64,000 nt of DNA, from the NCBI GenBank assembly GCA_001770415.1, contig MEQX01000024.1, positions 10,983 to 74,982 of the forward strand, in the 5' to 3' direction. The notes below the pieces were generated by a model. It saw nothing but the letters and a program-made list of their open reading frames with translations. It searched no databases and had not been told where the DNA came from. Source of the stretch: Betaproteobacteria bacterium RIFCSPLOWO2_02_FULL_63_19 (GTDB lineage Bacteria; Pseudomonadota; Gammaproteobacteria; Burkholderiales; SG8-39). A program made the translations under genes and the position numbers. This document shows, piece by piece, positions 14,601 to 32,197 of the stretch. Numbering within the stretch: the first letter of the stretch is position 1; each line of letters begins with the position of its first letter.

Positions 14601-14633
14601 TGCGGGCGGTGATGCCGATACCTTCGTCAGAAC

Positions 14634-14996: not shown

Positions 14997-15246
14997 GGCG
15001 CGACCTCCTATACATAGACATGGGGAACAGCCCTTACATTCATTCGAAACAATGAATGCGGACACAGGCTAATGGTTCCTTCGTTCCCGGGATCACGTCA
15101 AGGTACAAGTCCCAGCCACTTTCATCGTAGCGGGAAGTAGTTCACGAGATGCGCGCGTCTAACGGCACGCTCGTGCGACATAGTTCACGAAACGCTCAGG
15201 TCGAGTTCGTCAGCGACCTGCACTGCGGGTCGCCGCGCTGATCGGC

Positions 15247-16605: not shown

Positions 16606-16724
16606 CGCTTGAATCTCCTGATCGACGACATGCGCAAAACCTGCGAGCCCTCTCCCGATCCACCCCTCACGCGACCGGTCGCCGCGCGTCGGACGCTGCC
16701 CGCCGGCGTGACGGTGGCGCGGAC

Positions 16725-16758
16725 AAAAAAGCGGCCTCCTCCGAAGAACGCAAACCGC
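16725..16758 (-). terminator. Intrinsic-terminator-like hairpin in the rdhA upstream region
   Basis: Minus strand GCGGTTT..TTC-TTCG-GAG..GGCCGC followed by TTTTTT. Confidence 0.45.
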
Positions 16759-17081
16759 AGCATTTTGCTCCTTATTTCGAACAGCAGGGAAATCGATGCC
16801 GGCCCCGATCCTCGTCGCCGACCGCCAAATCCGCTCGTCCCCGTTCGCGCCGCGTAGCGCGGCCTCCCCCGGGGCCGATCGACACCGCGGCGTGCGCTAT
16901 GGGGTCGCCACGTCAGCGCGCAGTCATTCCTCGCCGGAGGCGGAAATTTGCGCAATTTTATTAGACAATTTCGCGGAAAGTCGCCTAAACTACCGAAAAG
17001 ACGATGGTTTGACGAGCTGATGGAGTTGTCCGCGCGTTCGATCCGCCGGCGGGCGCGAGACCTCATCGAAAGGAAACAGTC

Positions 17082-18062
17082 ATGCGCGCGCTGATTCGGT
17101 ATTTTTCCCTCGTTTTGCTTCTTGCGCTGCCGGCTTCGGCCGCATTTGCTGCTTCGGCCTACGTGCACAGCCTCTCGGGCACGCTCGCCGCGCGCGTGGG
17201 TCCGGGCCCGGCCATACCGCTCAAGATCGGCGACACCTTCGATCCCGGTGTCACGCTGGTCACCGGTGCAAACAGCGACGCGGTAGTCAAGTTCGAGGAC
17301 GGGCAGGTCATTACGCTGGCGCCGAATACGCAGTTTGCGGTGCGCGAGTACAACTACAACAAGCGCTCGGTGCGCGAGAGCAACGTCGTCTTCGCGCTGT
17401 TGCGAGGCGGCCTGCGCTTCGTCACCGGGGTCATCGGCGCGACCAACCGCAATGCGTTCAAGCTCAACGTCGGCACCGCGACCATCGGCGTGCGCGGCAC
17501 CGACGGCGTGGTCACTTATGACGATATCGCGAACATCATCACTGCGGCGACAAACGCCGGCGCTCTGCAACTGCAGAATCAGGGCTTCCTGACCGGCGTT
17601 GCATCCGGCCAGATTACCAGCGGGAGTCTCACTCGGGGTCAGACATATGCGAGCGTGGCGATTGCTCAAGCGACCCCGGACCTGACAGCGGCGATCAATT
17701 CGATAAACGCGAAGGCAATACCGATTAACACGCCGGTTGTGGTCGCCGCGTCCGCCCGTGCGGCGGCGGCGCAGGAGGCGGCGCGTATCGCGCAAGCGGC
17801 AGCTGACGCACCCGGCGCAACACAAGCCCAGCTTGAGCTGGCACAACGGGCTGCGCAACTGGCGCAGGACGCACTGAACACTGCGATCGCCGAGGCAGTA
17901 AACGCGTTCAACGCCGCGCAGGCCGGGGGCGGCCAGATTCCGGCGCCGCCGGCCCCGGTCGGCCCGGTCGAGACCGGACAGGCCGCAACAACGGGCCAGC
18001 AGGGGCGGCTGCAGAGCGTGATTGAACAGCTTCAGCCGCCGCCGAAGCCGCTGAGCCCGTAA
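17082..18062 (+). CDS. Secreted FecR-domain protein with Ala/Gln-rich helical and Pro-rich tail
   Basis: Signal peptide; VTGANSDAVVKFEDGQVITLAPNT, LLRGGLRFVTG, TATIGVRGT. Confidence 0.8.
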   Translation: MRALIRYFSLVLLLALPASAAFAASAYVHSLSGTLAARVGPGPAIPLKIGDTFDPGVTLVTGANSDAVVKFEDGQVITLAPNTQFAVREYNYNKRSVRESNVVFALLRGGLRFVTGVIGATNRNAFKLNVGTATIGVRGTDGVVTYDDIANIITAATNAGALQLQNQGFLTGVASGQITSGSLTRGQTYASVAIAQATPDLTAAINSINAKAIPINTPVVVAASARAAAAQEAARIAQAAADAPGATQAQLELAQRAAQLAQDALNTAIAEAVNAFNAAQAGGGQIPAPPAPVGPVETGQAATTGQQGRLQSVIEQLQPPPKPLSP

Positions 18063-18082
18063 GGGTCTGAGACGCACCTTTC

Positions 18083-18114
18083 GGCCCGCCGTACTCGTTG
18101 CGAGGCGGCGGGCC
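18083..18114 (+). terminator. GC-rich hairpin downstream of the FecR-domain gene
   Basis: GGCCCGCCG...CGGCGGGCC inverted repeat; no U-tract. Confidence 0.35.
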
Positions 18115-18469
18115 ATCGATCCACGTCGGTGTGGCGGAGGGCGCGAGTGTTCAAACGACTTGACTCGCAATTCTCCGCGCGGGTCTGGCTCTGTCAGCAT
18201 TGTCTTGTGACGTTTCAAGCGATCCGACAACGCGCGGCGCGTACACCCGAGTTCGACGGGCACGAAAGCGACCCGATCTATCCGGGCTTCACCTCGTGAG
18301 ACGCTCTCAATGCAACAGCAAGATATTCCCGGCGTTGTTCGCCCACCCGGTTCGGATACAATCCCCGGCAGTTCCCGGCGCGCCGCGCGAGGCGGGCGCA
18401 GACGATGGCTTTCGCGTGATTTGACTCGCGCCGGCTGACCGCCCCTGACCTGGCCTCCCGGGCGCTCAC

Positions 18470-19195
18470 ATGAAAAGGTCCGTTTCACTCCTCCTTCGGG
18501 CAGCATTTGTTTTCTCCTGCGTCGCCTTGCTGGCCTTTGCCGCCTGGCAGGCCAGCCTGCGCGGGCGCGCCGACCTGACGGCGCAGGGGCCGACTGCGCA
18601 GGTGGAGCGGTGGGCCCGAGGCGGCCGGATCGACTCGCTCCAACGCTGGAGACGCGCGGTGGACGGCCTGCGCGCGGCTCAGGCGCTGGTGCCGGGCGAA
18701 GCCGCGGTCTATGCATCGATGGCGCGCGCGTACTCGCTGGCGGCGATCTCCGCGCCAACGCCGTCAGCCGCAAGCGTGTACCGCGAGTTTTCGCTGCTGC
18801 ATTGGCGCCTCGTCACCATGCTTCGCCCGACCTGGCCGTACGGCTGGTCGGGGATTGCGACCCATACGTTCAACCTGGGTTACGCAGACGTCATGGGTGC
18901 GCTTTCGCGCGCGATGCGCTACGGTCCGTGGGAACCGGGCGTTCAGCTTTTTGCCTCACGCGTCGGGTTGTTACGCTGGGAGCTGCTCGACTCGACGCAG
19001 CGCGAGGAAGTGCGGCAGAACTGGCGCCGCACCGCGCAGCGCCAGGGTGAAGCGCTGGCGCGGATGGCCGTCGAACTGAAGCGCGAGCCGATACTGTGCG
19101 CCGAGGGCCTGCCTGGTATGCAGAAGCGGCTCCAATGCGACAAGCGCCGAAACGCGGCGCCGCGCAAACGCGCTGGAAACCGGATGACGCGATGA
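18470..19195 (+). CDS. VpsP-like polysaccharide biosynthesis / TPR-like protein
   Basis: N-terminal TM; RPTWPYGW...ALSRAMRYGPWEPGV pattern; coupled (ATGA) to an O-antigen ligase gene. Confidence 0.6.
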   Translation: MKRSVSLLLRAAFVFSCVALLAFAAWQASLRGRADLTAQGPTAQVERWARGGRIDSLQRWRRAVDGLRAAQALVPGEAAVYASMARAYSLAAISAPTPSAASVYREFSLLHWRLVTMLRPTWPYGWSGIATHTFNLGYADVMGALSRAMRYGPWEPGVQLFASRVGLLRWELLDSTQREEVRQNWRRTAQRQGEALARMAVELKREPILCAEGLPGMQKRLQCDKRRNAAPRKRAGNRMTR

Positions 19196-20691
19196 GGGCA
19201 GCGCACGAGCGCCGTAGCGCCGACGCCTGGGTGTTCGGCCTGTTCCTCGCGCTGCTCTTCTGGGCGCCGTTGCCGCTGGGGAGCGCGCGGCCCTGGGCCT
19301 GGACGATCCTCGAGCTCGGGATCTATTTCCTCGCCGCGTGCTGGCTCGCGCTGTGGGCGTTCGGCCGCGCGCGCGTTCGCGCGCCCTGCCGAGAGGCCTG
19401 GCCGGTGCTGACGTTGTTCGCGATATGGCTCGCGATCGTCGGTGTGCAGCTGCTACCACTGCCGCGCGAGATGGCGGAAATCATCTCGCCCGAATCGCTG
19501 CGCGTGTGGCTGGATGCGGGGCGCTTCGCCGAACGCGGCTATCCGGTGTCCACCGAGCCTGAGGCGACGACGGTGTTTCTGTTGAAGAGCCTCGCCTACG
19601 CGCTCGCGTTCTTTCTGACGCTGGTGCTCGCCGACCGGCGCGAACGGCTGAAGGCGCTCGCTTTCACGCTCGTCGCCTCGGGACTGCTGCAGGCGCTGTA
19701 CGCGAGCTTCGGGCATCTGCTGCAGCTGCAATACGAATTCGCCTTCACGCCGTTGAACCACGGCGATCGCGCGATCGGCACCTTCCGCAACCCGGACCAC
19801 CTGGCGGGGTACCTGGAACTCGCGCTCTCGGTGGGGATCGGCATGATGATCGGCACGCTGCGCGAACGCGCGCCGCGCACCTGGCGGCAGCGCTTGCGCG
19901 ACTGGGTGGGCTGGATGATCAGTCCGAGGATACTGCTGCGCCTCGTGCTCGTGGTGATGGTGATCGCGCTGGTGATGACGCGCTCGCGCGGCGGCAACGG
20001 GGCGTTCTTCGCCAGCATGCTCGTCGCCGGGGCGCTCGGCCTCGCGCTTTCGCGCCACGCGACGCGCTCGGTGGTGATTCTGATCGCGAGCCTGGTGGTG
20101 ATCGACGTATTCATCGTCGGCGCGTGGTTCGGCGTCGACAAGGTGATGCACCGCCTCGAACAGACCTCGCTCACGCGCGACGCCAGGGCGGTAGCGGGCA
20201 CCAGCGAGCAGTCGCTCGAGGAGCGTGGCGACCCGGCGCTATTCGCGCTGAACATGGCACGCGACTACCCGTGGCTGGGCAGCGGCGGCGGCACGTTCGC
20301 CAGCACGTTCATGAAGTACCGCACCGAGGAACTCGCGGGCGACTTCTACGTCAACGCCGCGCACAACGACTACGCGCAGTTCCTCGTGGAGACGGGCGTC
20401 ATCGGCCTCGCATTGATGGGCCTCGTTGTGCTGCTCTGTTTCGTCACCGCGCTGAAGGCACAGTACCAGCGCACCGACCCGCTCGCGCGCGGCGTCGCGT
20501 TCGGCGCCACGATGGGCATCGTCTCGCTGATGATCCACAGTTGGGTGGACTTCAACCTGCAGACCCCGTCGAACGCGCTCACTTTCGTCGTGGTACTGGC
20601 GATGGCGTGGCCGGCGGCGTACGTCGGGCGGCAGCGGCACGCGAGCGAGAGCGAGGAAGACCGCGCGGCAGCGGGAACGGCGCCAGGGTAA
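19192..20691 (+). CDS. O-antigen ligase / Wzy_C-family polymerase-like membrane protein
   Basis: GTFRNPDHLAGYL, TRSRGG, PWLGSGGGTF, AHNDYAQFLVETGVIG, HSWVDFNLQTPSN. Confidence 0.85.
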   Translation: MRAAHERRSADAWVFGLFLALLFWAPLPLGSARPWAWTILELGIYFLAACWLALWAFGRARVRAPCREAWPVLTLFAIWLAIVGVQLLPLPREMAEIISPESLRVWLDAGRFAERGYPVSTEPEATTVFLLKSLAYALAFFLTLVLADRRERLKALAFTLVASGLLQALYASFGHLLQLQYEFAFTPLNHGDRAIGTFRNPDHLAGYLELALSVGIGMMIGTLRERAPRTWRQRLRDWVGWMISPRILLRLVLVVMVIALVMTRSRGGNGAFFASMLVAGALGLALSRHATRSVVILIASLVVIDVFIVGAWFGVDKVMHRLEQTSLTRDARAVAGTSEQSLEERGDPALFALNMARDYPWLGSGGGTFASTFMKYRTEELAGDFYVNAAHNDYAQFLVETGVIGLALMGLVVLLCFVTALKAQYQRTDPLARGVAFGATMGIVSLMIHSWVDFNLQTPSNALTFVVVLAMAWPAAYVGRQRHASESEEDRAAAGTAPG

Positions 20692-20744
20692 CTGCACCGT
20701 TCCGGGCGGGCGTGCGCCTCGTCCCGACCGAGGGCGGCGGGCCG

Positions 20745-22385
20745 CTATTCCTTGGCGGAATACTCGTGCGGGATGTACGGAGCGCGCTCGTACGCGGGCG
20801 CGTACGGCGTGTGCTCGCGCGCCTTGGCACGATCCTTCTCGCGCCCCATGCGGTCGCTGCCGCCCAGCCAGTAGGGCTTCAAGCCGCGGCTTCGCCACCA
20901 GATCTCGGGCGCCGCCTTGGCGCTCCAAAGATCGCATCTCACGCAGCGTCGGGCTTCCTCCGTCGCTTCGCCGTCGGAGTAGCCGCGCTCGGCGAGTTCG
21001 AATCCACGTGCCCGCGACTCCGGCGGGAGTTCGCTCATCGAAACGCAACCCTTGCCCTGCGGATGGATGTCGGGGTGGTAATCCATTTCCTCTCCCGCTT
21101 CGGGCGCCAGTATTTCCGCGATGTCGCCGCTGCCCCCGAGGTAGCGGTCGATCTCCTGCGCGGCCGATCTCCCCTGCGCGATCGCCTTGATCACATTGAG
21201 CGGTCCGAGCACGACGTCTCCGCCGGCGAATACGCCTTCGCGGCTGGTCTTCAACGATCCGTCGGCTACGGCGATGGTCCCCTCGGCACCCCTGGCCAGT
21301 CCCCACGCGTCGGAGACCCCGGGGGTCTGACCGATCGCCGCCATGATCGTATCGGCGGCGATGGCATAGTCGCTCCCGGGCACGGGCTGCACGGCCGCCC
21401 GTCCGCTCGCATCCGCCTGTCCGAGCTGCATGCGCTGCAACCAGAGTTTGAGTGCGCTGCCGTCGCGCTCGATGCGCAGCGGAGAGGTCAGGAACTCGAC
21501 CTTCACGCCTTCGGCCTCGGCCGCACGCATCTCGAAGTCGTAAGCCGGCATCTCCTTACGGCCGCGGCGGTACAGAATGCGCACGTCTTGGGCGCCCAGC
21601 CGCAGCGCGGTGCGCGCGCAATCGACTGCGACGTTTCCTGCGCCGATGACCGCGACGCGTTTCCCGACCGTGGGGCGGCGGTTCTGTTCGACGCCCAGGT
21701 TGGCTTCCTTGAGAAACTGCACGGCTTTCCAGACGCCGGGAAGATCCTCGCCGGCGATCTCGAGGTCCCGCGCGATGCAGGTGCCGACCGCCAGGAACAC
21801 CGCGTCGTAGCCTGCGCGCTTGAGTTCGTCCAGATCGTCGACGCGCTGATTGCATTTCACGTCGACGCGGTGCGCGGTGATCATCGCGATCTCCTCGTCG
21901 AGCGCCTCGCGCGGAAGCCGGTTCGGCGGTATCCCGATTCGCAGCTGTCCCCCCGGCTTCGGCTGTGCCTCGAATACGGTGACCTCGTGCCCGCAGCGCT
22001 TGCCGAGATAGTAGGCCGCGGTCAATCCGGCCGGGCCCGAACCGACGACCGCCACACGCTTCCCGGTTGCGGCGGCGACCGCTTCGCCCCAGCGCTCTTT
22101 CCATACTCCGGTGTCCTTTTCGACGGCGGCGCGCTTGATGGCGTTGATCGCCACCGGCGCTTCCCACAGTGCGCGGCGGCACTCGGGCTCGCACGGCCGG
22201 TAACAGACGTATCCGCAGACCGCGGGGAACGGAATGCGCTCGCGCACGACTGCCGCCGCTTCCCCGAATTTTCCCAGCGCTGCATACCCGATGTAGCGGG
22301 GAATATCGATTCCCGCCGGACACCCCTCGACACAAGGCGCCCGCTGCCGTCCGCCGCCGTACGACTTTCCACTATGGTTTTCCAT
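20745..22385 (-). CDS. GltD/DPD-like NAD(P)H:FAD oxidoreductase with N-terminal Fe-S domain
   Basis: CVEGCPAGIDIP, CGYVCYRPCEPECRR, VVGSGPAGL, VIGAGNVAVDCAR, YRRGRKEMPA, GVFAGGD, EARRCVRC. Confidence 0.88.
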   Translation of the reverse strand: MENHSGKSYGGGRQRAPCVEGCPAGIDIPRYIGYAALGKFGEAAAVVRERIPFPAVCGYVCYRPCEPECRRALWEAPVAINAIKRAAVEKDTGVWKERWGEAVAAATGKRVAVVGSGPAGLTAAYYLGKRCGHEVTVFEAQPKPGGQLRIGIPPNRLPREALDEEIAMITAHRVDVKCNQRVDDLDELKRAGYDAVFLAVGTCIARDLEIAGEDLPGVWKAVQFLKEANLGVEQNRRPTVGKRVAVIGAGNVAVDCARTALRLGAQDVRILYRRGRKEMPAYDFEMRAAEAEGVKVEFLTSPLRIERDGSALKLWLQRMQLGQADASGRAAVQPVPGSDYAIAADTIMAAIGQTPGVSDAWGLARGAEGTIAVADGSLKTSREGVFAGGDVVLGPLNVIKAIAQGRSAAQEIDRYLGGSGDIAEILAPEAGEEMDYHPDIHPQGKGCVSMSELPPESRARGFELAERGYSDGEATEEARRCVRCDLWSAKAAPEIWWRSRGLKPYWLGGSDRMGREKDRAKAREHTPYAPAYERAPYIPHEYSAKE

Positions 22386-22408
22386 AAGTCATCCCCATGA
22401 TCAACGCG

Positions 22409-22627
22409 CTACCACGCCGTCACCATACGGCGCTCGTGAACCGACACCACCTGGATCGCATCCTCGGGACATTCCACCTCGCAGAGGAAACAGCTCTGGC
22501 ATTCCCGGAGGTATTTGATGTAGGCCTTCTTTGTCGACGAATCGAGCCTTATGACGTCCAGCGGGCACACGTCGACACACACGTTGCACCCTATGCACAG
22601 CTTAGGGTCGATTACTCGGATGCCCAT
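22409..22627 (-). CDS. 2x[4Fe-4S] ferredoxin (AprB-like)
   Basis: MGIRVIDPKLCIGCNVCVDVCP...CQSCFLCEVECP; overlaps the end of the upstream flavoprotein gene. Confidence 0.85.
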   Translation of the reverse strand: MGIRVIDPKLCIGCNVCVDVCPLDVIRLDSSTKKAYIKYLRECQSCFLCEVECPEDAIQVVSVHERRMVTAW

Positions 22628-24360
22628 TCTATCCTCCCGTCCTTGACACTCACGACGCCCTGATCCCGGGCCATCTTCCACAGATACGCGAGCTCCGCTT
22701 CACGCTTGGGCGCGACCGGATAGGTATCGATGGGAATATCCTCCGTCCACCACTTCTGCTCGCCGCCTTCCTGGCGCACGCGGATCCACTTGAGCCAGTT
22801 CACGTTGTCGGTGAACGGATAGTCCTCGCGCAGGATGTTGCGCGTTTCCTTTCTTTCAATCGCCGCCTTCAGCGTGAGTTCGGCGGTCAGAGTCAGGTTC
22901 TTGACTTCGTGACACAAGCGCAGATAGTGCAGGTCGTACGCGCCCAGCATCGGCAGGTCCTGATCGCGAATGGTTTCGACCCGCTGCAGCGCCCGCGCCA
23001 TGCGCCGGCCCTCGCGCAGAAGCAGCACATCGTACGGGATCACCGCTTCCTGCAGTTCCAGCAGCACATGCTCGGATTCCAGTCCTTCCGGTCTGGCGAG
23101 CGGCGCGAACGCCCGCTCGCGCAGTTCGCCCACCTGCCCGTTCTCGTCGCCTGGATCGCCGGCATCGCGCGCGCAGCGGGCGGCCGAGGTTCCGGCGCGC
23201 GCGCCCGAGGTCGCAGCCGCCGCGAGGCCTGTGACGACCGCGCTCGGCGGGCACGCTTCACCTGCGGCGAACAGCCGCGGCGTGCGCGAAGCGTAATCGC
23301 GGTCCACGACGACACCGGGCCGCGTCGTCGGACCGGTGGGACAGAACTCGACCGTCTTCCGGAATTTCCCGTCCTGCACGACGCCTACGCTTTCGAACTC
23401 CCGCTGCGGCAGCGGCAGCATCTGGTACAAGCGCCCCATCTGCTCCGGTCCGAAGTGCCTCGCGTCCATCATGATGGGCGCTCTGCCCATGCGCGCCTCG
23501 ATGCAGAAGAACGCGACGATCTGGGGCAGTCCGGAACGCTCCTTCAGTTTCGGGCTGTAGCGCACCATGAAGCGCTCGCCCTTCGAGTTCAGGAAGTAGG
23601 CGCCTTCGCCCATCCACTTGTTCATGCCCGGCCCGACGTCGACGCGGGCGGGCATCGCGTTGGCCGGCTGGTCGTTCTGTTCGCCGCCGCCCAGCGTCGC
23701 CCCGATGCGGTAGGCCATCGCGAACCCGTCGCCGGAACAGTCGCGCTGTCCCGGGTGAATGCTTTTGTAATAGGTGCTTCCGGTCGCGAGGACCGTGGCC
23801 CTCGCACGCAGGGCATGGAAATCGCCGCTGTGCTGGTGAAAACCGACTGCCCCGGTGACCTCGCCATTGCGCGAAAGAAGGTCGGTCAAGTAAAGCCGGT
23901 TGATCTGCTCGACGCCGATCGACTGCGCGTATTTGCGCAGCGAATCCATCAGCTGGGTGCTGAAGAACTGGACGATCGGGTAGGCGCCGCGCCCCGCCAT
24001 GCGCCGGTAGCTGCCGTCGGTGTTCATCACCAGGTGCACGCCGTAGCGGCGCAGTTCCTCGAGGATCACGTGGCTTTCCTGCAGGTGGTCCCTGATCAGG
24101 TCCTGCTGCGCGAGATAGCCCTGCGCGCGGGTCAGCCGCAGGACCCTGTCGTCGAGGTCGTCTTCCGGAAAGCAGACGTGTATCACGCCGGCCGCAAAAC
24201 AGCTGTTGCCGGTCTTGCCGACGGTGCCCTTGTCCACCTGAACCACGCGACGGGCTCCCGCCTGCTTGGCCTTGATCGCGGCGAACGTGGCCGCGATGCC
24301 GCCGCCGATGACCAGCACGTCGATGCCGTCGATAGTGTGAGTTTGAACCTGTAGCGCCAT
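22612..24360 (-). CDS. FAD-binding oxidoreductase of the SdhA/FrdA/AprA/NadB fold, unknown substrate
   Basis: DVLVIGGGIAATFAA, VLATG, SGDGFAMAYRIGA, GEGAYFLNSKGERFM, LFAAGE, KETR..LREDYP. Confidence 0.8.
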   Translation of the reverse strand: MALQVQTHTIDGIDVLVIGGGIAATFAAIKAKQAGARRVVQVDKGTVGKTGNSCFAAGVIHVCFPEDDLDDRVLRLTRAQGYLAQQDLIRDHLQESHVILEELRRYGVHLVMNTDGSYRRMAGRGAYPIVQFFSTQLMDSLRKYAQSIGVEQINRLYLTDLLSRNGEVTGAVGFHQHSGDFHALRARATVLATGSTYYKSIHPGQRDCSGDGFAMAYRIGATLGGGEQNDQPANAMPARVDVGPGMNKWMGEGAYFLNSKGERFMVRYSPKLKERSGLPQIVAFFCIEARMGRAPIMMDARHFGPEQMGRLYQMLPLPQREFESVGVVQDGKFRKTVEFCPTGPTTRPGVVVDRDYASRTPRLFAAGEACPPSAVVTGLAAAATSGARAGTSAARCARDAGDPGDENGQVGELRERAFAPLARPEGLESEHVLLELQEAVIPYDVLLLREGRRMARALQRVETIRDQDLPMLGAYDLHYLRLCHEVKNLTLTAELTLKAAIERKETRNILREDYPFTDNVNWLKWIRVRQEGGEQKWWTEDIPIDTYPVAPKREAELAYLWKMARDQGVVSVKDGRIEWASE

Positions 24361-24362
24361 GT

Positions 24363-26021
24363 CTACTCCTTTGCCTGCCGTACCGACAGAAACCGCTGCA
24401 CGAGATCGAGCCTGTTGACCTTGTTGCTATCGAGTCGGGGAAACTCGTCCATGAGGAGCACCTCCTCGGGAATCTTGTAGGACGCGATGTTCTTGCTGCG
24501 CAGGAACGCATCGAACTCTTCCGGGACGACATCCACGCCTGTCCGGGGTATCACGAATGCGCAGGGTACCTCGCCGAGCACCGGGTGCGGAACGCCGACC
24601 ACTGCGGCTTCGAGCACCTTGGGGTGGCGGCACAGTATGGACTCGATCTCCGCCGGGTGGACCTTGTTGCCGCCGCGGATAATGACCTGCTTCTTGCGCC
24701 CCAGTAGCGAGAGGTTGCCCTGGGCGTCGATACCGGCGAGATCCCCGGTGCGGAACCATCCTTCGCGGCCGAGTTCTCCCCAGGCGCGACGCGTGGCCTC
24801 GAGGTCACGGAAATATCCGGAACTGGTGCCTGGGCCCCGGACCCACAGCTCGCCGACTTCTCCCGCAGGAACTTCCTGATTCGTCTCGTCGACGAGCTTC
24901 ACTTCGATTCCCGGCAGCGCGCGACCCACCGACCCGCCAAGGCGAATCTCGCGCGGATCGTCCAATGCCGCCTGCGCGATGGATACCGTTTCCATGCTGC
25001 CGTAGGCCGGCGCCATCACGCATCCGAGCTTCGCTTCGGCTTCCTGCGCCACCGAAGGCAACAGCGCCGCGGTTCCGGTTCGGATCACTCGCAGCGAACT
25101 CAGATCGTAGCGCGATAGATCCGGGTGCTCCAGGAGTCGCAGCAGTATCGCCGGAACGGTACCCATGAAGCTCACGCGCTCGCGCTCGATCAATTCGAGG
25201 ATCGTCTCCGCCGCCATCGATTCCGACAGCACCATCCGGCATCCGAGTTGGGCCGCGATCAGCCAGGCCATCGCGCCGGCGCCACCGCCCACCGGGGCAA
25301 AGATCCCGACCACGTCCTCCCGAGTGAGTTTCAGTCGTGATGCTATTCCCGATCCAATCAAGACTTGAGCGCCCTCGGGCCACTCGCAGACTTTCGGTTC
25401 GCCGGTGCTGCCGCTGGAGAGCGAAAGCAGAGAAACCTCGTCCGGCCCATAACGGGTCTGGTCCAGGCAGTCGGGTCGAATCTCCGGATCTGCACGCCGC
25501 TGCATCAGGTCGTTCAGCGATATTGCGCCGGCCGGAACCCGGTCCCCCGACACGAGCAAGTGCGGCTGCGCTTGCGAGCGGTCTTCATCGCGGATGCTTG
25601 CCATCATCTCCAGGTAGTCGAATCCCCGGAATTCGTCCACCAGCAGCACGGCCTTGGGATCGAGGTACCGGAACATGGGCCCCATCTCTGACTGACGCCA
25701 CATGATCGGTGCGAATGCCGCCAGCAGACCTGCTTTCTTCAACGCGATCCGGACCAGCAGATTCTCGACGCCGTTCGGAAGCTGGATCAGGACAAGGTCG
25801 TCGCGCTTTAGCCCGAGGTCCAGCAACCCCAACGCGAGCAGATCGGACTGATTCTTGACCTGGGCCCAGGTGAGCCGGCTCTGACGGTCCGACATGGCTT
25901 CGCCGTCCGGAACGTCCGTCGCGTGGCGCTCGAGCGCGCGGACCATCGTGTCGGGCGACCACAAGCCCCGTTCGAGATATTCCCGAACCATCTCCTGCGG
26001 CATGCGCGTTGGTTTCGACAC
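24363..26021 (-). CDS. AMP-dependent acyl/aryl-CoA ligase (ANL superfamily; DhbE/cyclohexanecarboxylate-CoA ligase-like N-terminus)
   Basis: SSGSTGEPK, YGSME, WFRTGDL, GRKKQVIIRGG, YKIPE. Confidence 0.88.
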   Translation of the reverse strand: MSKPTRMPQEMVREYLERGLWSPDTMVRALERHATDVPDGEAMSDRQSRLTWAQVKNQSDLLALGLLDLGLKRDDLVLIQLPNGVENLLVRIALKKAGLLAAFAPIMWRQSEMGPMFRYLDPKAVLLVDEFRGFDYLEMMASIRDEDRSQAQPHLLVSGDRVPAGAISLNDLMQRRADPEIRPDCLDQTRYGPDEVSLLSLSSGSTGEPKVCEWPEGAQVLIGSGIASRLKLTREDVVGIFAPVGGGAGAMAWLIAAQLGCRMVLSESMAAETILELIERERVSFMGTVPAILLRLLEHPDLSRYDLSSLRVIRTGTAALLPSVAQEAEAKLGCVMAPAYGSMETVSIAQAALDDPREIRLGGSVGRALPGIEVKLVDETNQEVPAGEVGELWVRGPGTSSGYFRDLEATRRAWGELGREGWFRTGDLAGIDAQGNLSLLGRKKQVIIRGGNKVHPAEIESILCRHPKVLEAAVVGVPHPVLGEVPCAFVIPRTGVDVVPEEFDAFLRSKNIASYKIPEEVLLMDEFPRLDSNKVNRLDLVQRFLSVRQAKE

Positions 26022-26095
26022 GATGGCTTCCTCAAACCCGAAACCATAGTAAGGTCATTGCAGAACGTCAAATTTATTCTCAGTAGCTATTACAT

Positions 26096-26110
26096 TTACA
26101 TATGTATATG
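26096..26110. promoter_or_regulatory. AT-rich dyad between the divergent CoA-ligase and LysR genes (candidate LTTR site)
   Basis: TACATATGTA palindrome (26097-26106) inside a T-N11-A frame, in an AT-rich spacer. Confidence 0.35.
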
Positions 26111-26153
26111 CTTAGGCCAGCATCCACAATGGGCTTACGCAAAGGGGACCGGC

Positions 26154-27065
26154 GTGAACTTGCATCAACTCAAACTGTTCTGCGCGGTCGTGGAAACGGG
26201 AAGCTTCGCCCTCGCAGGAGAGCGACTTCACATCACGCAGCCGGCATTGAGCATCCAGGTCCGACGCCTTGAACTGGGTCTGCGCACGGTGCTATTGCGA
26301 CGAAACAAGAAGGGACCGATGCTCACCGACGCGGGCAAGGTCGTCTACGATGCGGCGAAAGCGATCTTCGAGCGCGAGGACGGGCTGCAACGACAACTCG
26401 AGGAAATCCGCTCAGGAGAAAGAGGCACGCTGGCCGTTGCGATAAGTCCGACCGGCGTGCTGTATTTCGCCTCGCAGTTGATTCAGGCGTTCAAGCGCCG
26501 CTTTCCTGCCGCCGCCGTGATACCGACGATCGGAACGCGCGAGGAAGTCCTTGAACGGGTGGCGCAAGGAAGCGCCGATCTGGGTTTCGAATGGGGCCCG
26601 ATTACCCATCCGCGGCTGGTCCACTCGGCTCTTATCCGGGCTCGTTTTCTTGTGGTCACGAGTCCTGAACACGCCTTCGCCGATAAGAAGGTCGTCCGGG
26701 TGTCGGATTTCGTGCACGAACCCTTGGTCGATCTGGACCACGGCCCGGGAACGCCATCCTTCGTCGAGCAAGCTCTTCTGAAGGCGGGAATTCGGCCGAA
26801 GACCGTGCTTCGCGTGCCATCGATCGACGCGATGAAAAGCCTCATTGAAGCGAATCTGGGCGTCGGAATGCTGTCGGACCTTTCGGTCGAGCGCGAGGTT
26901 GGCCTGGGACTTCTGAAACCACTGCCGTTGCAAGGGTTTCCTCTCGCCCGAGATCTCGTCGTCGTGTCACGCAAGGACGGCCCGATTTCGCGGGCGACCG
27001 CCTCATTCCTGGAATTCGCCGCGAGCTACCGTGCCCCGGTGTCTGCGCGGCCCCGGAGTCGCTAA
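26154..27065 (+). CDS. LysR-family transcriptional regulator
   Basis: GTG start; NLHQLKLFCAVVETGSFALAGERLHITQPALSIQVRRLE HTH. Confidence 0.92.
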   Translation: MNLHQLKLFCAVVETGSFALAGERLHITQPALSIQVRRLELGLRTVLLRRNKKGPMLTDAGKVVYDAAKAIFEREDGLQRQLEEIRSGERGTLAVAISPTGVLYFASQLIQAFKRRFPAAAVIPTIGTREEVLERVAQGSADLGFEWGPITHPRLVHSALIRARFLVVTSPEHAFADKKVVRVSDFVHEPLVDLDHGPGTPSFVEQALLKAGIRPKTVLRVPSIDAMKSLIEANLGVGMLSDLSVEREVGLGLLKPLPLQGFPLARDLVVVSRKDGPISRATASFLEFAASYRAPVSARPRSR

Positions 27066-27080
27066 CCTCGAAACCCCGCG

Positions 27081-29942
27081 CTAGGACTTCGCCGCCCGCA
27101 GCGCGGTTCGTATCCTTTCCGGCGTGATGGGCAACTCCTTGACCCAGACACCGGTGGCGTTGGCGATCGCATGCGCGACGGCGCCGAGCACCGGCAGCGT
27201 GGTCCCTTCGCCGATTTCCTTTGCGCCGTACGGCCCCTCGGGTTCGTAGGATTCGACGAGTCCGCTGAAGATATCCGGCGCATCCTTGATGGTCATCACC
27301 AGGTAGCCGTGAAGGTTCGGATTCATCATGCGGCCTTTTTCATCGAACAGGATTTCCTCCATGATCGTTTCGCCGGCCCCCATGACGATGGCGCCTTCCA
27401 CTTGGCCGCGGGCCATCATGGGATTGATCGGCACGCCGCAATCATGGTAATCGGTGAATTGTTCGATCTTGACCTTGCCGGTCTCGAGATCCACCGACGC
27501 CTCGCAGACCGAACTGCCGAACGAATAGGCGGGGCTGGTGCCGACGGTGGCACCCTTGTAGTCGCCGCCCAGCCCGTCGCGCGGTTTGTACCAGCCTGTT
27601 CCCACCAGGGGACCGTTGTCATTGAAGTACTTCCGCGCCACTTCTTCCCACGGCACGCTGCGGCCGTTCGCGGCGTACATCCTGGCATCCCGCGCCACCA
27701 CCTCGGACGGATCGCACTCCAGCATGGCTGCCGCAATGGGCTTCATGCGCTCCACGACAGCTTGCCCGGCGCGCGATACGGCGTGTCCTCCCATCAGCGT
27801 CACGCGCGAGGAATAGGCGCCGAGATCGATCGGGGAGATGTCGCTGTCCTCGGCCCGCACGCGCATCCGCGACACCGGTATGCCGAGTGCTTCGGCGCAC
27901 ATCTGCGCCATGACCGTCTCCGCGCCCTGCCCGATTTCCGCCACCCCTATCATCAGGATCGCCGCCATGCCGTCCTCGGTGACGCGCACGATGGCATTGG
28001 CGTGCGGAAAGATCGACTTTTTCTGAAAATGTTCCGGCCCTTTTTCATGCGACATCTGCACCTGGCCCCGATAGATGGCGTAGCCGGCGCCCGAGACGAA
28101 ACCGCCGCAACCGATCCCGATGCCTTGCCCCTTGGGCAGTTTGCCGTACTTTTCCTTCCATCCGGACTTCTTCTGTACGGCATCGAGCGTGGCCCGGAAT
28201 TCGCAACTCTGGATGTCGAGATCGTTGACGGTCCGCGTGTTCGGGTCCATGGAATTGCGTCTGCGGATCTCGATCGGATCGATCCCCATCTCATCCGCCA
28301 TCATGGTGAGGAGACACTCGAAGGCAAAGCGCGGCTGCGGCACGCCGTGGCCCCGGAATGCGCCGCAGGCGGGTTTGTTGGTCACGACCCGAATTCCCTT
28401 GTACTTGAAATTTGGAATGTGATAGAGCGTCGGCATCATGTTGCCGGCGTAATACGTCGTGGCCACGCCGAACGAGGCGTAAGCGCCGCCGTCGAGATGG
28501 ATCTCGCTTTCGAATGCCTTGATCTTGCCGTTGCGATCGAGGCCCAGTTTGTACTTCATGTACTGCTTGTGGCGCCCGCGACCGAACAGCATCATCTCTT
28601 CGCGCGAGTAGACCATCTTGACGGGACGGCCCGTGATCTTGCTGAGGATCGGCGCGCAAAGCTCCAGCGGTGAGGTGCCCGCCTTCGCTCCGAATCCGCC
28701 GCCGACGGTGGGGCGGATGACACGAATCCTGCCCAGCGGCAGGTGGAATACGTGAGCCAACATGTACTGGACATAATGCGGCGCCTGTGTCGAAGTGTAG
28801 AGCACCAACGTTCCGTCGCTCTCCCAGGTCGCAATGGACGCGTGCGGCTCCATCGGCTGCTGATGCGTGAGGTTGCCGACGAAGGTCTCTTCCTTCACGA
28901 AATCCGACTCGGCAAAGCCCTTTTCCACGTCGCCGTGCGCCTGATCGACGAAGGTGTTGATGTTGCCCCGATAGCGCTCGTGAATCAGTGGCGCATCTTT
29001 GGCGATCGCTTCGAAAGGATCGAGGATCGGCGGCAGTTCCATGTATTCCACTTCGATCAGCGAAAGCGCTTTTTCGGCTGTCTTCTCGTCGATCGCGGCA
29101 ACCGCGGCCACGCGGTCACCGACGTGGAGCACTTTCTTCTTGGACAGTACGTGTTCGTCGTAGCGGGCCGGTGAAACGCCGAAGCACTCATCCGGCACGT
29201 CCTCGCCGGTGATGACGGCGAGCACGCCGGGCAAGGCCATGGCTTTGCTGGTGTCGATGCGCTTGATGATGCCGTGGGCGATCGGCGAGCCGAGGATTTT
29301 GCCATGGGCCATGCGCGGCAGCGAAATGTCACCGGTGTAAAGCGCTCGTCCCATCGCCTTGTCCGCAGCATCCAGGCGCGGAATCGAGGCGCCGACACTC
29401 GCATAGCGTTCGTCTCCGACATAGCTGCCGTCGTCGGTTGCGGGAACCTCGCCCGATTTCTCGGCGCAGGTGCCGTCGCCCCGATAGTTCCCGCATCGCC
29501 GCACGGCACGCATAATTCCGAAGTAGCCCGTGCAGCGGCACAGATTGCCGGCCAAACCGTCCTTGATTTCCTCGATGCTCGGCTCCGGGTTCTTGTTCAG
29601 CAGCGCGATCGAGGACATGATCATCCCCGGCGTGCAATAGCCGCACTGGATGCCGCCCTCATTGACGAACGCCTTCTGGATCGGGGCAAGCTCGCCATCC
29701 TTCGCCACCCCTTCGATGGTCGAAATCTGTTTGTCCTCGGCTTCGCTGGCGAGCATCAGGCAGCTGTTGATCGGCGTGCCGTCGACCAGCACCGTGCAGG
29801 CACCGCAATCGCCCAGGTTGCAGCCCTTCTTGGTGCCGGTGAGGCCGAGCGTATCGCGCAGGACGTCGAGGAGCGTTTCTCCACCTTGCAGCGCGACTGG
29901 ATACGGCCGGCCGTTAATTTTCAGCGTGCGTGTGTTCGCCAT
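27081..29942 (-). CDS. Xanthine-oxidase-family molybdoenzyme: [2Fe-2S] subunit fused to 4-hydroxybenzoyl-CoA-reductase-alpha (HcrA)-like Mo subunit
   Basis: Start MANTRTLKING (TGATG overlap); GCNLGDCGACTV, QCGYCTPG, NLCRCTGY; then GGGFGAK, FRGHGVPQ, KLPKGQGIG, FVSG, GAYSSRVT, GAKEIGEG. Confidence 0.85.
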   Translation of the reverse strand: MANTRTLKINGRPYPVALQGGETLLDVLRDTLGLTGTKKGCNLGDCGACTVLVDGTPINSCLMLASEAEDKQISTIEGVAKDGELAPIQKAFVNEGGIQCGYCTPGMIMSSIALLNKNPEPSIEEIKDGLAGNLCRCTGYFGIMRAVRRCGNYRGDGTCAEKSGEVPATDDGSYVGDERYASVGASIPRLDAADKAMGRALYTGDISLPRMAHGKILGSPIAHGIIKRIDTSKAMALPGVLAVITGEDVPDECFGVSPARYDEHVLSKKKVLHVGDRVAAVAAIDEKTAEKALSLIEVEYMELPPILDPFEAIAKDAPLIHERYRGNINTFVDQAHGDVEKGFAESDFVKEETFVGNLTHQQPMEPHASIATWESDGTLVLYTSTQAPHYVQYMLAHVFHLPLGRIRVIRPTVGGGFGAKAGTSPLELCAPILSKITGRPVKMVYSREEMMLFGRGRHKQYMKYKLGLDRNGKIKAFESEIHLDGGAYASFGVATTYYAGNMMPTLYHIPNFKYKGIRVVTNKPACGAFRGHGVPQPRFAFECLLTMMADEMGIDPIEIRRRNSMDPNTRTVNDLDIQSCEFRATLDAVQKKSGWKEKYGKLPKGQGIGIGCGGFVSGAGYAIYRGQVQMSHEKGPEHFQKKSIFPHANAIVRVTEDGMAAILMIGVAEIGQGAETVMAQMCAEALGIPVSRMRVRAEDSDISPIDLGAYSSRVTLMGGHAVSRAGQAVVERMKPIAAAMLECDPSEVVARDARMYAANGRSVPWEEVARKYFNDNGPLVGTGWYKPRDGLGGDYKGATVGTSPAYSFGSSVCEASVDLETGKVKIEQFTDYHDCGVPINPMMARGQVEGAIVMGAGETIMEEILFDEKGRMMNPNLHGYLVMTIKDAPDIFSGLVESYEPEGPYGAKEIGEGTTLPVLGAVAHAIANATGVWVKELPITPERIRTALRAAKS

Positions 29943-30820
29943 CACTTTTCTCCTGTTGCGCGCGCTTGAGCGGTCAGTAGGGCACGCCGGGTCAAGGTTC
30001 CGACGAGTTCTCGCCTGTACTCGGCCGATCCGCGCAGGTCCGAGATCGGCAGCGCTGCCGCTATGGCAGCTTGCGCCGCGCGGTCGAGACCGTTCTTGTC
30101 CAGGACCTTGCCTGCCAGCGCGGTGTGCGCGTCGGGTACAAGCGTCGGCTTGCCGGCAACTGCGGAAAGACACACGCGCGCCTGCGCGACGCTGCCGTCC
30201 GCCTTCAATTGCAGGCTCGCGGCCACCGCCGCCACGGCGACGGAATTCGCTTCGCGCAGACCGAATCGCGCATAGCCTGCGCCAAACCTCGCCGGGGAAT
30301 GGGGAACCAGCACTTCGGTCAGGACCTCATCGTCGCGTAGTACCGTTTCCCGCGGGCCGACAAAGAAGGCTTCGATCGGCATGTTGCGCACTCCCGATGG
30401 CGACCACAGGTTCAGCGTGGCGTTACTGACCGCCAGCACCGGCGGCAGGTCGGCACACGGCACGGCACCGACGATGTTCCCGCCAACGGTTCCCAGATTT
30501 CGAACCTGCGGACTCGCCATTTCCCGGGCGGCGTCGCGGACGACCGGACATTTCTCGCGGATGACGTCGGACGTCGCCACCTCATTGAGTGTGGCGAGCG
30601 CTCCGATTCTCACGCGGTCATCGACGGACGCAATCCCCCGCAATGCCGCGATCCTGTTGAGGGAAATCACGTGACCGGCTCCGTACCGGTCGGTCTTGAG
30701 GTCAACGATCAGGGAAGTTCCCCCGGCCAGAAAGCGCGCCTGTTTTCCCCATCGAGCGATCATCTCCGCCGCTTGTTCAAGCGTGGAGGCGTCGTGAAAC
30801 TCAGCTTCGGACAAGATCAC
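29942..30820 (-). CDS. FAD-binding medium subunit (CoxM/CutM-type) of a xanthine-oxidase-family enzyme
   Basis: LAGGTSL, ASPQVRNLGTVGGNI, DLRGSAEYRR; no Cys-rich insertion. Confidence 0.88.
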   Translation of the reverse strand: MILSEAEFHDASTLEQAAEMIARWGKQARFLAGGTSLIVDLKTDRYGAGHVISLNRIAALRGIASVDDRVRIGALATLNEVATSDVIREKCPVVRDAAREMASPQVRNLGTVGGNIVGAVPCADLPPVLAVSNATLNLWSPSGVRNMPIEAFFVGPRETVLRDDEVLTEVLVPHSPARFGAGYARFGLREANSVAVAAVAASLQLKADGSVAQARVCLSAVAGKPTLVPDAHTALAGKVLDKNGLDRAAQAAIAAALPISDLRGSAEYRRELVGTLTRRALLTAQARATGEK

Positions 30821-31062
30821 GGCCTTCCTCCTACAGTATCCAAGAAAGACAGCGCCGCACCGTTCAGCTCAGCTCGGGCGTGCTGCGCAACAGTTCCCTG
30901 CGCCGCCTGCAGGCGAACGCAGCGTCACAGGCTGACACGAGAGAAATGCCGTCGAATTGACCTGCATCAAGCCGAGTCGGGGCGCTCCGACCGGCCGAGC
31001 GCTCGACGGTACACGGTACACTTACCCGCCGCACAACGTCTTCCAACGCACTCCAACCAGCG

Positions 31063-31998
31063 ATGTCCGATACACTCGCCGCCCTGCTCCCGGTCTTCCT
31101 GCTGATTGTCACCGGCTTCGTGCTGCGCCGCAGCCTGCTGTCGGAGGAGTCGCACTGGACCGGCATCGGGCAGCTCGTGTATTTCGTGATGCTTCCGGCG
31201 CTGTTGATCGACACGCTGGCGCGCGCGGATTTCGCACGCCTGCCGGTCGGCAGCATCGGCGGTGCCCTTCTCGCGGCGATTGCGGCGATGGCAGCGATCT
31301 GCCTCGCGCTGCGACGGCCGCTCGCCAGTCGGCTCCAGATCGACGGCGCGGCGTTTACGTCGCTGTTTCAGGGTGCAACGCGCTGGAATGCCTTTGTCGC
31401 ACTGGCGATCGCGGCGGGCCTGTTCGGCAACCACGGCGTCGCCCTCGTGTCGGTTGCGATGCTGGCGATGATCCCGGTGCTCAACGTGCTCAACGTGCTC
31501 AACGTCTGGGTGCTGGCGCGCTACGCCGCCGCAAAGCGGCCCGACTGGCGCACCGTGGTCGTCGCGTTGATCCGCAACCCGCTCATCTGGTCGTGCGCAG
31601 CGGGCATTGCACTGAACCGGATCGAGATCGCAATCCCGCCGCCCGTGCATGTCTTCGCCGAAGCGCTGGGGCGTTCATCGCTCGCGCTGGCGCTGTTGAT
31701 GGTCGGCGCGGGGCTGCGTCTCACGAGTCTGCTGCAGCCTTCGCCGGCCGCGCTGCTCGCGAGCGTGCTCAAGCTCGTCGTGCTGCCGGCGCTGGCGATC
31801 GGCGCAGGGCACCTGATGGGATTGAACGCAGCCGGCCTCGGCGTAGTCGCGATCACGTCGTCCGTGCCGACAGCTCCCGTGGCCTACGTGCTGGCGCGGC
31901 AGATGGGCGGCGATGCCGAGCTGCTGGCGCAGATATTGACGATGCAAACCGTGCTCGCCGCGCTGACCATACCGATCATGATTTCGCTTGCCCTATGA
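31063..31998 (+). CDS. AEC (auxin efflux carrier / malonate-malate permease) family transporter
   Basis: 10 TM; LVYFVMLPALL, RWNAFVALA, NPLIWSCAAG, AYVLARQMGGDAEL. Confidence 0.88.
   Translation: MSDTLAALLPVFLLIVTGFVLRRSLLSEESHWTGIGQLVYFVMLPALLIDTLARADFARLPVGSIGGALLAAIAAMAAICLALRRPLASRLQIDGAAFTSLFQGATRWNAFVALAIAAGLFGNHGVALVSVAMLAMIPVLNVLNVLNVWVLARYAAAKRPDWRTVVVALIRNPLIWSCAAGIALNRIEIAIPPPVHVFAEALGRSSLALALLMVGAGLRLTSLLQPSPAALLASVLKLVVLPALAIGAGHLMGLNAAGLGVVAITSSVPTAPVAYVLARQMGGDAELLAQILTMQTVLAALTIPIMISLAL
31477..31503 (+). repeat. 9-bp tandem repeat x3 (GTGCTCAAC) inside the AEC gene
   Basis: Encodes VLN-VLN-VLN. Confidence 0.9.
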
Positions 31999-32121: not shown

Positions 32122-32197
32122 TGGTAGGCCGTGCAGGAGTCGAACCTGCGACCAACGGATTAAAAGTCCGCTGCTCTACCAACTGAGCTAACGACCC
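32122..32197 (-). tRNA. tRNA-Lys(UUU)
   Basis: GGGTCGTTAGCTCAGTTGGTAGAGCAGCGGACTTTTAATCCGTTGGTCGCAGGTTCGACTCCTGCACGGCCTACCA; 76 nt, encoded CCA; follows cpoB as in other proteobacteria. Confidence 0.97.

Follow-up and report, generated by a model that had tools for sequence, protein, structure and literature searches.

In the genome of the uncultured groundwater betaproteobacterium Betaproteobacteria bacterium RIFCSPLOWO2_02_FULL_63_19 (assembly GCA_001770415.1), a block of ten genes is tentatively read here, with not quite an even chance of being right, as a catabolic block, associated with a LysR regulator, that would process a carboxylic acid in the form of its coenzyme A (CoA) thioester, most likely a cyclic, aromatic or hetero-aromatic acid. 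The block lies in a stretch of 64,000 nt, hereafter the window, which spans positions 10,983-74,982 of the forward strand of contig MEQX01000024.1, and it consists of two joined units. Unit 1 (26021-20745) encodes a CoA ligase, a flavoprotein, a ferredoxin and a GltD-like protein, and Unit 2 (30820-27081) the flavin adenine dinucleotide (FAD) subunit and the iron-sulfur-molybdenum (FeS-Mo) fusion of a Mo enzyme. Since the Mo enzyme is absent near the Unit 1 cassette in four other close relatives with readable flanks, the two units are regarded as separable. The cassette core is a real and portable functional unit: the cassette, or its ligase-flavoprotein-ferredoxin core, was found in about 10 independent metagenomic contexts, usually beside a TAXI-TRAP carboxylate importer. 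All six protein types that an earlier note on this DNA had named for the region 20745-30820 were found at their coordinates by Pfam, NCBIfam and the translations, and the features of the block are as follows.

20745-22385, minus strand: NfnB/GltD-like NAD(P)H oxidoreductase, 546 aa (Pfam Fer4_20 and Pyr_redox_2)
22409-22627, minus strand: 2x[4Fe-4S] ferredoxin, 72 aa, with two CxxCxxCxxxCP motifs in the translation
22612-24360, minus strand: FAD protein of the AprA/PAPS-reductase/SdhA fold, 582 aa (Pfam FAD_binding_2 and Succ_DH_flav_C)
24363-26021, minus strand: acyl/aryl-CoA ligase of the ANL superfamily, 552 aa (Pfam AMP-binding and AMP-binding_C)
26066-26111, between the ligase and lysR genes: candidate promoter/operator block, predicted from conservation and sequence match
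about 26154-27065, plus strand: LysR-type regulator (Pfam HTH_1 and LysR_substrate)
27081-29945, minus strand: [2Fe-2S]x2-Mo fusion, about 954 aa (Fer2, Fer2_2, hammerhead Ald_Xan_dh_C, MoCoBD_1/2)
29942-30820, minus strand: CoxM/CutM-type FAD subunit, 292 aa (Pfam FAD_binding_5 and CO_deh_flav_C)
31063-31998, plus strand, divergent from the Mo operon: AEC-family transporter (Pfam Mem_trans)

The two tightly packed minus-strand gene groups described earlier were confirmed, and the intergenic spacing is operon-like. In Unit 1 a gap of only 2 nt follows the ligase gene, the flavoprotein gene runs 16 nt into that of the ferredoxin, and 23 nt separate the ferredoxin gene from the GltD-like one; in Unit 2 the stop of the FAD-subunit gene and the start of the fusion overlap by 1-4 nt. 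The lysR gene does lie between the two operons, but it diverges from the ligase operon (132-nt intergenic region) and converges with the Mo operon (15-nt gap), which would make it a regulator of the ligase operon only.

Two scans supplied loci for comparison. A scan of genome contigs with the flavoprotein as query gave only 5 loci, which were useful; in a metagenome scan with the family alignment the patterns proved too general, and 74 of 80 loci were SdhA-like, 24-32% identical and devoid of the partner genes. The plasmid collection held no flavoprotein homologue and only Mo-domain matches of at most 36% identity, so that no cultured, annotated reference was found. The arrangements recovered, with identities in brackets, are listed below.

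L006 (flavoprotein 94% at the amino acid level, 86% at the nucleotide level overall): whole block from the AEC to the GltD-like gene, collinear with the window
L002, L004 and L007-L009 (73-85%): ligase, flavoprotein, ferredoxin and GltD-like genes, then TAXI-TRAP
L003 (81%): C-terminal fragment of the ligase at the contig start, then flavoprotein, ferredoxin and GltD-like genes
L017 (83%): ligase and flavoprotein up to the contig end
L001: DctPQM TRAP upstream of flavoprotein, ferredoxin and GltD-like genes
L011/L012, L097 and L100/L101 (48-51%): ligase, flavoprotein and ferredoxin plus TAXI-TRAP, no GltD-like gene
L010: CoA-transferase III in place of the ligase
L005: glycyl-radical enzyme and activase directly upstream of flavoprotein and ferredoxin

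The check for syntenic clusters proposed in the earlier note thus came out in its favour, as the four genes of Unit 1 co-occur elsewhere (L002, L003, L004, L006 and L007-L009). The presence of a CoA-transferase III at the place of the ligase in L010 suggests that the substrate is a CoA ester. The genes around these cassettes include UbiD (L004 and L100/L101), Amidohydro_2 and a Rieske oxygenase (L002), and a YeiH-like transporter (PF03601) beside the flavoprotein-ferredoxin pair in L011/L012 and L097. In L097 (1355-10955) two paralogous flavoprotein-ferredoxin pairs are found with TAXI-TRAP and ligase genes between them, followed by YeiH-like, ECH, 3HCDH and HpaB/AbfD-like genes. In L005 (6643-11931), a locus of a Chloroflexi metagenome-assembled genome (MAG), the glycyl-radical enzyme (791 aa), its activase, the flavoprotein and the ferredoxin are encoded in one operon.

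The intergenic block between the ligase and lysR genes (26066-26111) is conserved in the window, L006 and L002. The palindromic TACATATGTA in this block is a candidate site for a LysR-type transcriptional regulator, and a promoter-like match for the ligase operon lies on the minus strand at 26071-26043 (-35 TTGACG, -10 TATGGT). A LysR orthologue occupies the same position in L006 (86%) and L002 (73%), and a distant LysR is encoded upstream of the ligase in L011/L012. To judge from its domains, orientation and conserved intergenic site, the window protein fits a LysR-type regulator of a divergent operon, and by acting at the 26066-26111 block it would control at least the ligase operon.

Whether the cassette and the Mo enzyme form one module, as the earlier note assumed, received a divided answer: both units are joined in the window and in the near-identical L006, but the Mo enzyme is absent from the readable flanks of the four other close relatives (73-85%). 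An association of an Hcr-type enzyme with ligase, flavoprotein and ferredoxin was nevertheless recovered in an independent lineage, since L011/L012 carry a single operon in the order LysR, ligase, flavoprotein, ferredoxin, HcrB (with the Cys insert), HcrC, HcrA and TAXI, in which HcrA is 40% identical to the window Mo domain and equally close to the HcrA of Thauera. Genes of the xanthine-oxidase (XO) family lie within 5-8 kb of cassette relatives in L010 and L022, a weaker proximity. The link of the cassette to HcrA-lineage enzymes is therefore recurrent but facultative, and a second explanation, possible though rather doubtful, has to be weighed, in which a self-sufficient mobile LysR-cassette landed beside an unrelated Mo-enzyme/AEC unit and the two share no pathway. 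Such an event would account for the cassettes of L002, L004 and L007-L009, whose readable flanks hold no Mo enzyme (nor does that of L003, of which 5 kb on one side could be read), for the fused Mo family turning up beside TetR and other partners where the cassette is absent, for the convergence of lysR with the Mo operon, and for the IS66, rve and integrase genes between which the cassette sits in L007/L008; besides, L006, the sole contig to show the arrangement in full, is closely related (86% at the nucleotide level) and hence not independent evidence. It would leave unexplained why L011/L012 place a different Hcr lineage in the ligase-flavoprotein-ferredoxin operon and why XO-family genes lie nearby at two more loci, a recurrence across lineages that is unlikely by chance for a family with few loci per genome. 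The surroundings of the cassette in L007 and L008 suggest recent mobility. At these loci (L007, 999-7308; L008, 240-3885) the cassette and TAXI genes stand directly downstream of IS66, rve and tyrosine-recombinase genes, and a biotin carboxylase/carboxyltransferase set comes after them.

The flavoprotein misses every NCBIfam equivalog, the best being NF006131 (171 bits against a cutoff of 587). The sdhA/frdA models reached at most 124 bits against cutoffs of at least 567, and on these cutoffs the protein is not assigned to succinate dehydrogenase or fumarate reductase proper. In an AlphaFold2 (AF2) model obtained from 32 homologues (pLDDT 93), the top Foldseek match was the archaeal 3'-phosphoadenosine 5'-phosphosulfate (PAPS) reductase 8a8o_A (TM 0.80-0.84), with SdhA/FrdA and AprA ranking next and an identity of about 21% for all matches; likewise, the family profile scored 226 bits on the PAPS reductase 8a8o, 197 on AprA and 195 on SdhA. 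The AprA fold proposed from the sequence alone is borne out by both comparisons. A C-terminal arginine motif, RxE(S/T)R...R(E)DYP, is common to SdhA/AprA-type enzymes and present in the flavoprotein. The translation of the ferredoxin carries CIGCNVCVDVCP and CQSCFLCEVECP, and this 72-aa protein follows the flavoprotein in nearly every relative examined. With 36.8 bits on the aprB model (cutoff 135.65) and no AprB tail, the ferredoxin is best regarded, from its gene order and overlap, as a constant, translationally coupled, AprB-like partner of the flavoprotein. Homologues of the pair number in the hundreds, and the source names among the best 120 are all MAGs or metagenomes.

The pair resembles AprAB and archaeal PAPS reductase (1jnr, 8a8o) in having an AprA/SdhA-fold FAD subunit with a small 2x[4Fe-4S] subunit encoded directly downstream, but it differs in sequence (about 21% identity) and in its constant neighbours, which are the ANL ligase, a TRAP importer and, often, an NfnB-like protein. 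Membership among the adenosine 5'-phosphosulfate (APS) or PAPS reductases was rejected on the model scores, on the lack of counterparts for AprA W234 and R265 in the profile alignment and on the absence of sulfur genes at any locus. A published 'AprAB-like' clade shares with the window ferredoxin a tail-less AprB and has sulfur-assimilation neighbours (PMC8477390); it is a different lineage from the window pair. We consider it highly improbable that the pair works in sulfur chemistry, where the species reduced or formed would be a sulfur-oxyanion, either adenylylated or organic, for instance (P)APS or a derivative of an aryl or alkyl sulfonate. PAPS and APS reductases are indeed the nearest solved relatives, the clade with tail-less AprB has been proposed to act in sulfur assimilation (PMC8477390), a YeiH-like transporter (PF03601) adjoins the pair in L011/L012 and L097, and L005 offers a glycyl-radical enzyme as neighbour; yet no sat, cysDC, asr or sulfur-trafficking genes were found near any cassette examined, the aprA (60 bits against 641.75) and aprB models stay far below cutoff, the two AprA residues are unmatched, and the constant partner is a carboxylate-activating ligase.

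The GltD-like protein comprises two [4Fe-4S] sites in Fer4_20, FAD/NAD(P) Rossmann domains and a C-terminal extension of about 125 aa, and it falls below all NCBIfam cutoffs, those of the glutamate-synthase equivalogs included. The label given to it earlier holds for the Fer4_20 and Rossmann architecture but not for the closest kin, which are proteins of the Stn/Nfn type (9bov 373 bits, 8oh5 334 bits, NfnB 4ylf_B 270 bits) rather than GltD (177 bits); by its domains and these matches the protein belongs among the GltD/NfnB-type NAD(P)H Fe-S flavoproteins, and with the glutamate-synthase cutoffs missed it is not GltD proper. It shares the Fer4_20 and FAD/NAD(P) architecture with NfnAB, StnABC, GltD modules and AadN and differs from them in lacking an NfnA-like partner, in having the AprAB-like pair instead and in its 125-aa C-terminal extension. 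The gene follows flavoprotein and ferredoxin in L001-L004 and L006-L009. The electron-input partner of the pair seems to vary, being NfnB-like in one clade and, in L011/L012, an Hcr-type enzyme with a ferredoxin-accepting cluster.

A comparable set of proteins is encoded by the E. coli YgfK-YgfM-XdhD locus, which together with AegA/YgfT makes up an anaerobic purine/selenate-linked Mo system: [2Fe-2S] and Mo domains are fused in one protein of about 950 aa, the FAD subunit is separate and small, and a GltD-like Fe-S flavoprotein completes the locus. The NCBIfam models of these families scored far below their cutoffs on the window proteins (TIGR03313 421 bits, TIGR03312 72 bits, TIGR03315 311 bits), and the window differs in that its Mo domain is much nearer to HcrA, its GltD-like protein tracks the flavoprotein and ferredoxin, and a CoA ligase is present. 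The GltD-like protein as a partner of the Mo enzyme on the YgfK/XdhD model was rejected, since it follows the flavoprotein pair in 6 contexts without Mo genes.

The ligase has as its nearest solved proteins DhbE, EntE and salicyl-AMP ligases (215-249 bits), with 4-coumarate-CoA ligase (4CL) at 168 bits. In the binding pocket, the DhbE segment H234-N235-Y236...S240, PMAHNYPLSSPGV, aligns to a Gly-rich PVGGGAGAMAW. An identity as a salicylate or 2,3-dihydroxybenzoate ligase, prompted by the ranking of the Protein Data Bank (PDB) matches, was dropped since the pocket motif is absent. The activation of an aromatic acid inferred in the earlier note is thereby weakened, since the ligase resembles aryl-acid adenylases overall but is without their hydroxy-aryl pocket. 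A further alternative is that the flavoprotein is a dehydrogenase or reductase of substituted succinyl-CoA or another dicarboxylyl-CoA, doing the chemistry of SdhA on a succinate-like moiety with a thioester at its other carboxyl and serving aliphatic or alicyclic dicarboxylates taken up by TAXI-TRAP and not aromatic acids. The SdhA/Frd fold with its conserved C-terminal RxExR...ReDYP motif, the TAXI and DctPQM TRAP partners, the CoA-transferase III of L010 (of the BbsEF-type family), the glycyl-radical enzyme and activase immediately upstream in L005 and the ECH, 3HCDH and AbfD/HpaB-like genes downstream in L097 would all suit such an enzyme. We hold it to be quite improbable, as an oxidation of this kind cannot reduce NAD(P)+ through the GltD-like module unless energy is put in, the Hcr-type, UbiD and Amidohydro_2 neighbours indicate aromatic acids, and the nearest relatives of the ligase are aryl-acid enzymes.

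With all its Pfam domains above gathering thresholds, Unit 2 belongs to the xanthine-oxidase/Mo-hydroxylase family. For the fusion the best NCBIfam model is TIGR03194 HcrA (851 bits against a cutoff of 994.55), followed by XdhA with 570 bits; the Mo domain scores 508-510 bits on Thauera HcrA (1rm6_A) and 342 on the next PDB match, the [2Fe-2S] module resembles HcrC (157 bits), and the GGGFG and GAKE..GEG motifs align with HcrA, although the identity of the Mo domain to HcrA, in an alignment judged by eye, is only moderate. The HcrA-like Mo enzyme of the earlier note is thereby corroborated (510 against 342 bits). The FAD subunit finds its best PDB matches in CutM/CoxM, HcrB aligning only N-terminally (residues 2-122), and the 39-residue Cys-rich insert that forms the [4Fe-4S] loop of HcrB is present in the HcrB-like protein of L011 and absent in the window protein, L006 and L014-L016. 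Because the fusion stays below the equivalog cutoff and the [4Fe-4S] insert is lacking, Unit 2 is a member of the HcrA lineage and not a bona fide 4-hydroxybenzoyl-CoA reductase (4-HBCR), an identity that did not hold up. The similarity to HcrCAB of Thauera aromatica (PDB 1rm6/1sb3) lies in the Mo domain and in the CoA ligase encoded alongside; the differences are that HcrCAB and HbaBCD have three separate subunits where the window has gamma and alpha fused in one 954-aa open reading frame (ORF), that the FAD subunit is CutM/CoxM-like without the 39-residue [4Fe-4S] insert, and that no low-potential partner ferredoxin system of the Thauera type is evident.

The fused Mo protein is itself part of a very large family: more than 100 homologue clusters, which come from Planctomycetota, Phycisphaerae and Acidobacteriota and are 72-97% identical to it (72-78% across phyla), have this FeS-Mo fusion too, with the same 292-aa FAD gene plus a TetR gene upstream. 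In L015 and L016 the Mo unit faces an operon with Oah-, Had- and Dch-like genes, a short-chain dehydrogenase/reductase (SDR), a thiolase, an HGD-D/BcrB-like gene with activase and a DUF2889-ANL ligase (1140 aa). The Oah-like (215 bits) and Had-like (242 bits) assignments are each the best match, all benzoyl-CoA-pathway-like genes being below equivalog cutoffs, and the operon looks like an uncharacterised benzoyl-CoA-like pathway. As the fused Mo family faces these ring-degradation-like genes, it would work in ring or alicyclic CoA-ester metabolism. Near the operon, the Planctomycetota-type loci (L015, 1-12312; L016, 1-19024) also hold a HemN-like radical SAM gene and xdhC, and the L015 contig carries hydrazine synthase alpha, an anammox marker.

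A genuine route for 4-hydroxybenzoate, or for a close analogue such as protocatechuate or 4-aminobenzoate, in which the ligase produces the aryl-CoA, the Mo enzyme removes the para substituent and the flavoprotein, ferredoxin and NfnB-like protein do no more than supply electrons, possibly of low potential by bifurcation from NAD(P)H, is suggested by the Mo domain, which among characterised proteins is by far closest to HcrA, by the benzoyl-CoA-like lower-pathway genes beside the fused family, and by the NfnB/Stn-like nature of the GltD-like protein, for which AadN of R. palustris, a GltD/Nfn-like module feeding an aryl-CoA reductase, is a precedent (PMC9973337). This route is nonetheless distinctly unlikely: the FAD subunit lacks the [4Fe-4S] loop by which Thauera 4-HBCR takes electrons from ferredoxin, the Mo domain is under the HcrA equivalog cutoff, the flavoprotein has the full substrate-type SdhA/AprA architecture, and it travels with a ligase and a transporter where there is no Mo enzyme, which is hard to reconcile with a pure electron donor.

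Based on the family assignments, the block would operate like known aryl-CoA modules (Hcr/Hba, Hmf), while being a member of no curated family at the equivalog level. The likeness to Hmf is one of gene logic: under the LysR regulator HmfR, the HmfABCDE set of Cupriavidus basilensis pairs a CoA ligase with an XO-family Mo enzyme that has three cofactors and a hetero-aryl-CoA as its substrate, and no AprA-like flavoprotein or GltD-like module is known from this furoyl-CoA pathway. For the block as a catabolic module of CoA thioesters, we hypothesize that a TRAP or AEC transporter brings in the acid, which the ligase then joins to CoA. Electrons from NAD(P)H would pass through the FAD of the NfnB/GltD-like protein and its own [4Fe-4S] clusters to the 72-aa ferredoxin and on to the AprA/SdhA-fold FAD, a wiring inferred from the likeness to GltD-GltB, PreT-PreA, NfnAB and AprAB, and the latter flavin could carry out a two-electron reduction of the thioester, the target being for instance a C=C bond, a bond of the ring or a substituent adjacent to the activated carboxyl. 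Thermodynamics favour the reductive direction, since couples of the SdhA/AprA type lie far above NAD(P)H. The HcrA-lineage Mo enzyme may add or remove a ring oxygen on an aryl-CoA-type substrate, its electrons probably passing through the plain FAD subunit to or from NAD(P) or a quinone-level carrier, and probably not by the low-potential ferredoxin route of Thauera 4-HBCR. Taken together, ligation would be followed by two redox steps that draw on one NAD(P)(H) pool.

The aromatic or cyclic class of the substrate is suggested by the Hcr links, by the UbiD, Amidohydro_2 and Rieske neighbours, by the context of the fused Mo family and by the nearest relatives of the ligase. Several points weigh against the reading as a whole. 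The ligase lacks the H-N-(Y/F)...S/C hydroxy-aryl pocket of DhbE-type adenylating enzymes and scores about equally on the medium-chain and cyclohexanecarboxylate ligase models of NCBIfam, TAXI-TRAP systems characterised so far carry aliphatic C4/C5 acids, and some relatives have other company, namely beta-oxidation-like genes in L097 and a glycyl-radical enzyme in L005. The case for an aromatic acid in particular is weakened by the unusual pocket, by the aliphatic substrates of known TAXI systems and by the L097 neighbours. In addition, the flavoprotein family is without a characterised member, no close member of the fused Mo family has been characterised, and the cooperation of the two units may be incidental, as close relatives of the cassette have no Mo enzyme and the fused Mo family occurs without the cassette.

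The reductive dehalogenase-like gene rdhA, which the earlier note placed in one block with the AEC gene and suggested might be served by the same redox link, does not belong to the module. The window regions 8000-15200 and 20741-31991 are collinear with L006, but the 5.5 kb between them (15200-20741) have no counterpart there, and this segment contains rdhA (15247-16605), an overlapping ORF of 723 aa (16602-18773) with no Pfam or NCBIfam match, and a Wzy/O-antigen-ligase-like gene (19096-20691). The rdhA gene is genuine (TIGR02486, 237 bits against 160) and absent from the collinear stretch of L006 and from all other loci compared, and it is not counted as part of the module since it lies within the segment missing from L006; a link to RdhA thus finds no support in synteny. 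The AEC gene, for its part, is kept with the block in L006, at the same place (86%), and collinearity stops just past it. A single island at tRNA-Lys carrying both rdhA and the module was rejected, L006 having the module with neither rdhA nor a tRNA junction. At 14573-14605, 33 nt match the 3' half of tRNA-Lys(UUU) at 32124-32156 in 27 of 33 positions, with compensatory T-stem changes (CAGG/CCTG against CTGG/CCAG), and could be what is left of another tRNA, or else an att-like repeat. Two TAXI-TRAP systems and a fused TctA-TctB transporter (84-3232, 4578-6623 and 8252-11298) are also encoded in the window, within 20 kb of the block. The system at 8252-11298 is kept beside the block in L006, but its identity to the TAXI proteins linked to the cassette in L011 is no more than 30% for the binding protein and 39% for the membrane protein. 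The window further encodes COX1, heme-copper oxidase subunit I (59250-61109), which does not point to an obligately anaerobic lifestyle; the organism is probably able to respire oxygen, and the 'anaerobic' in the earlier description of the module is not established.

No description of the cassette was found in literature searches for the gene combination and for AprA-like proteins, nor was there a plasmid match, in line with the earlier note, which did not recognise the combination as a described pathway. The backbone of oxygen-independent carbon turnover is formed by pathways that handle aromatic and alicyclic acids as CoA esters, and the redox enzymes of these pathways, benzoyl-CoA reductase (BCR), 4-hydroxybenzoyl-CoA reductase (HCR) and naphthoyl-CoA reductase (NCR), are textbook examples of difficult chemistry. 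Two large uncharacterised families meet in the block, the AprA-fold flavoprotein-ferredoxin pair, whose genes nearly always accompany those for an acid-CoA ligase and a TRAP importer, and the fused HcrA-lineage Mo enzyme. In a bolder view, which we hold to be unlikely, the AprAB-like pair and the NfnB-like protein would form a new class of ATP-independent, perhaps bifurcating reductase of aryl- or cyclic acyl-CoA, performing a step (dearomatisation, dehydroxylation or ene reduction) for which known pathways use BCR, HCR, OYE or ACAD enzymes. Together with HcrA-lineage enzymes they would then make up a route so far overlooked, by which groundwater Betaproteobacteria, Chloroflexota and 'Deltaproteobacteria' that are uncultured yet abundant handle substituted aromatic acids. 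The four-gene cassette is small and self-contained, and hence directly testable by heterologous expression. With a substrate assigned to either family, thousands of metagenomic genes that at present bear the wrong label, 'succinate dehydrogenase flavoprotein' or '4-hydroxybenzoyl-CoA reductase', would gain an annotation, and a new means by which NAD(P)H electrons reach a thioester substrate might come to light.

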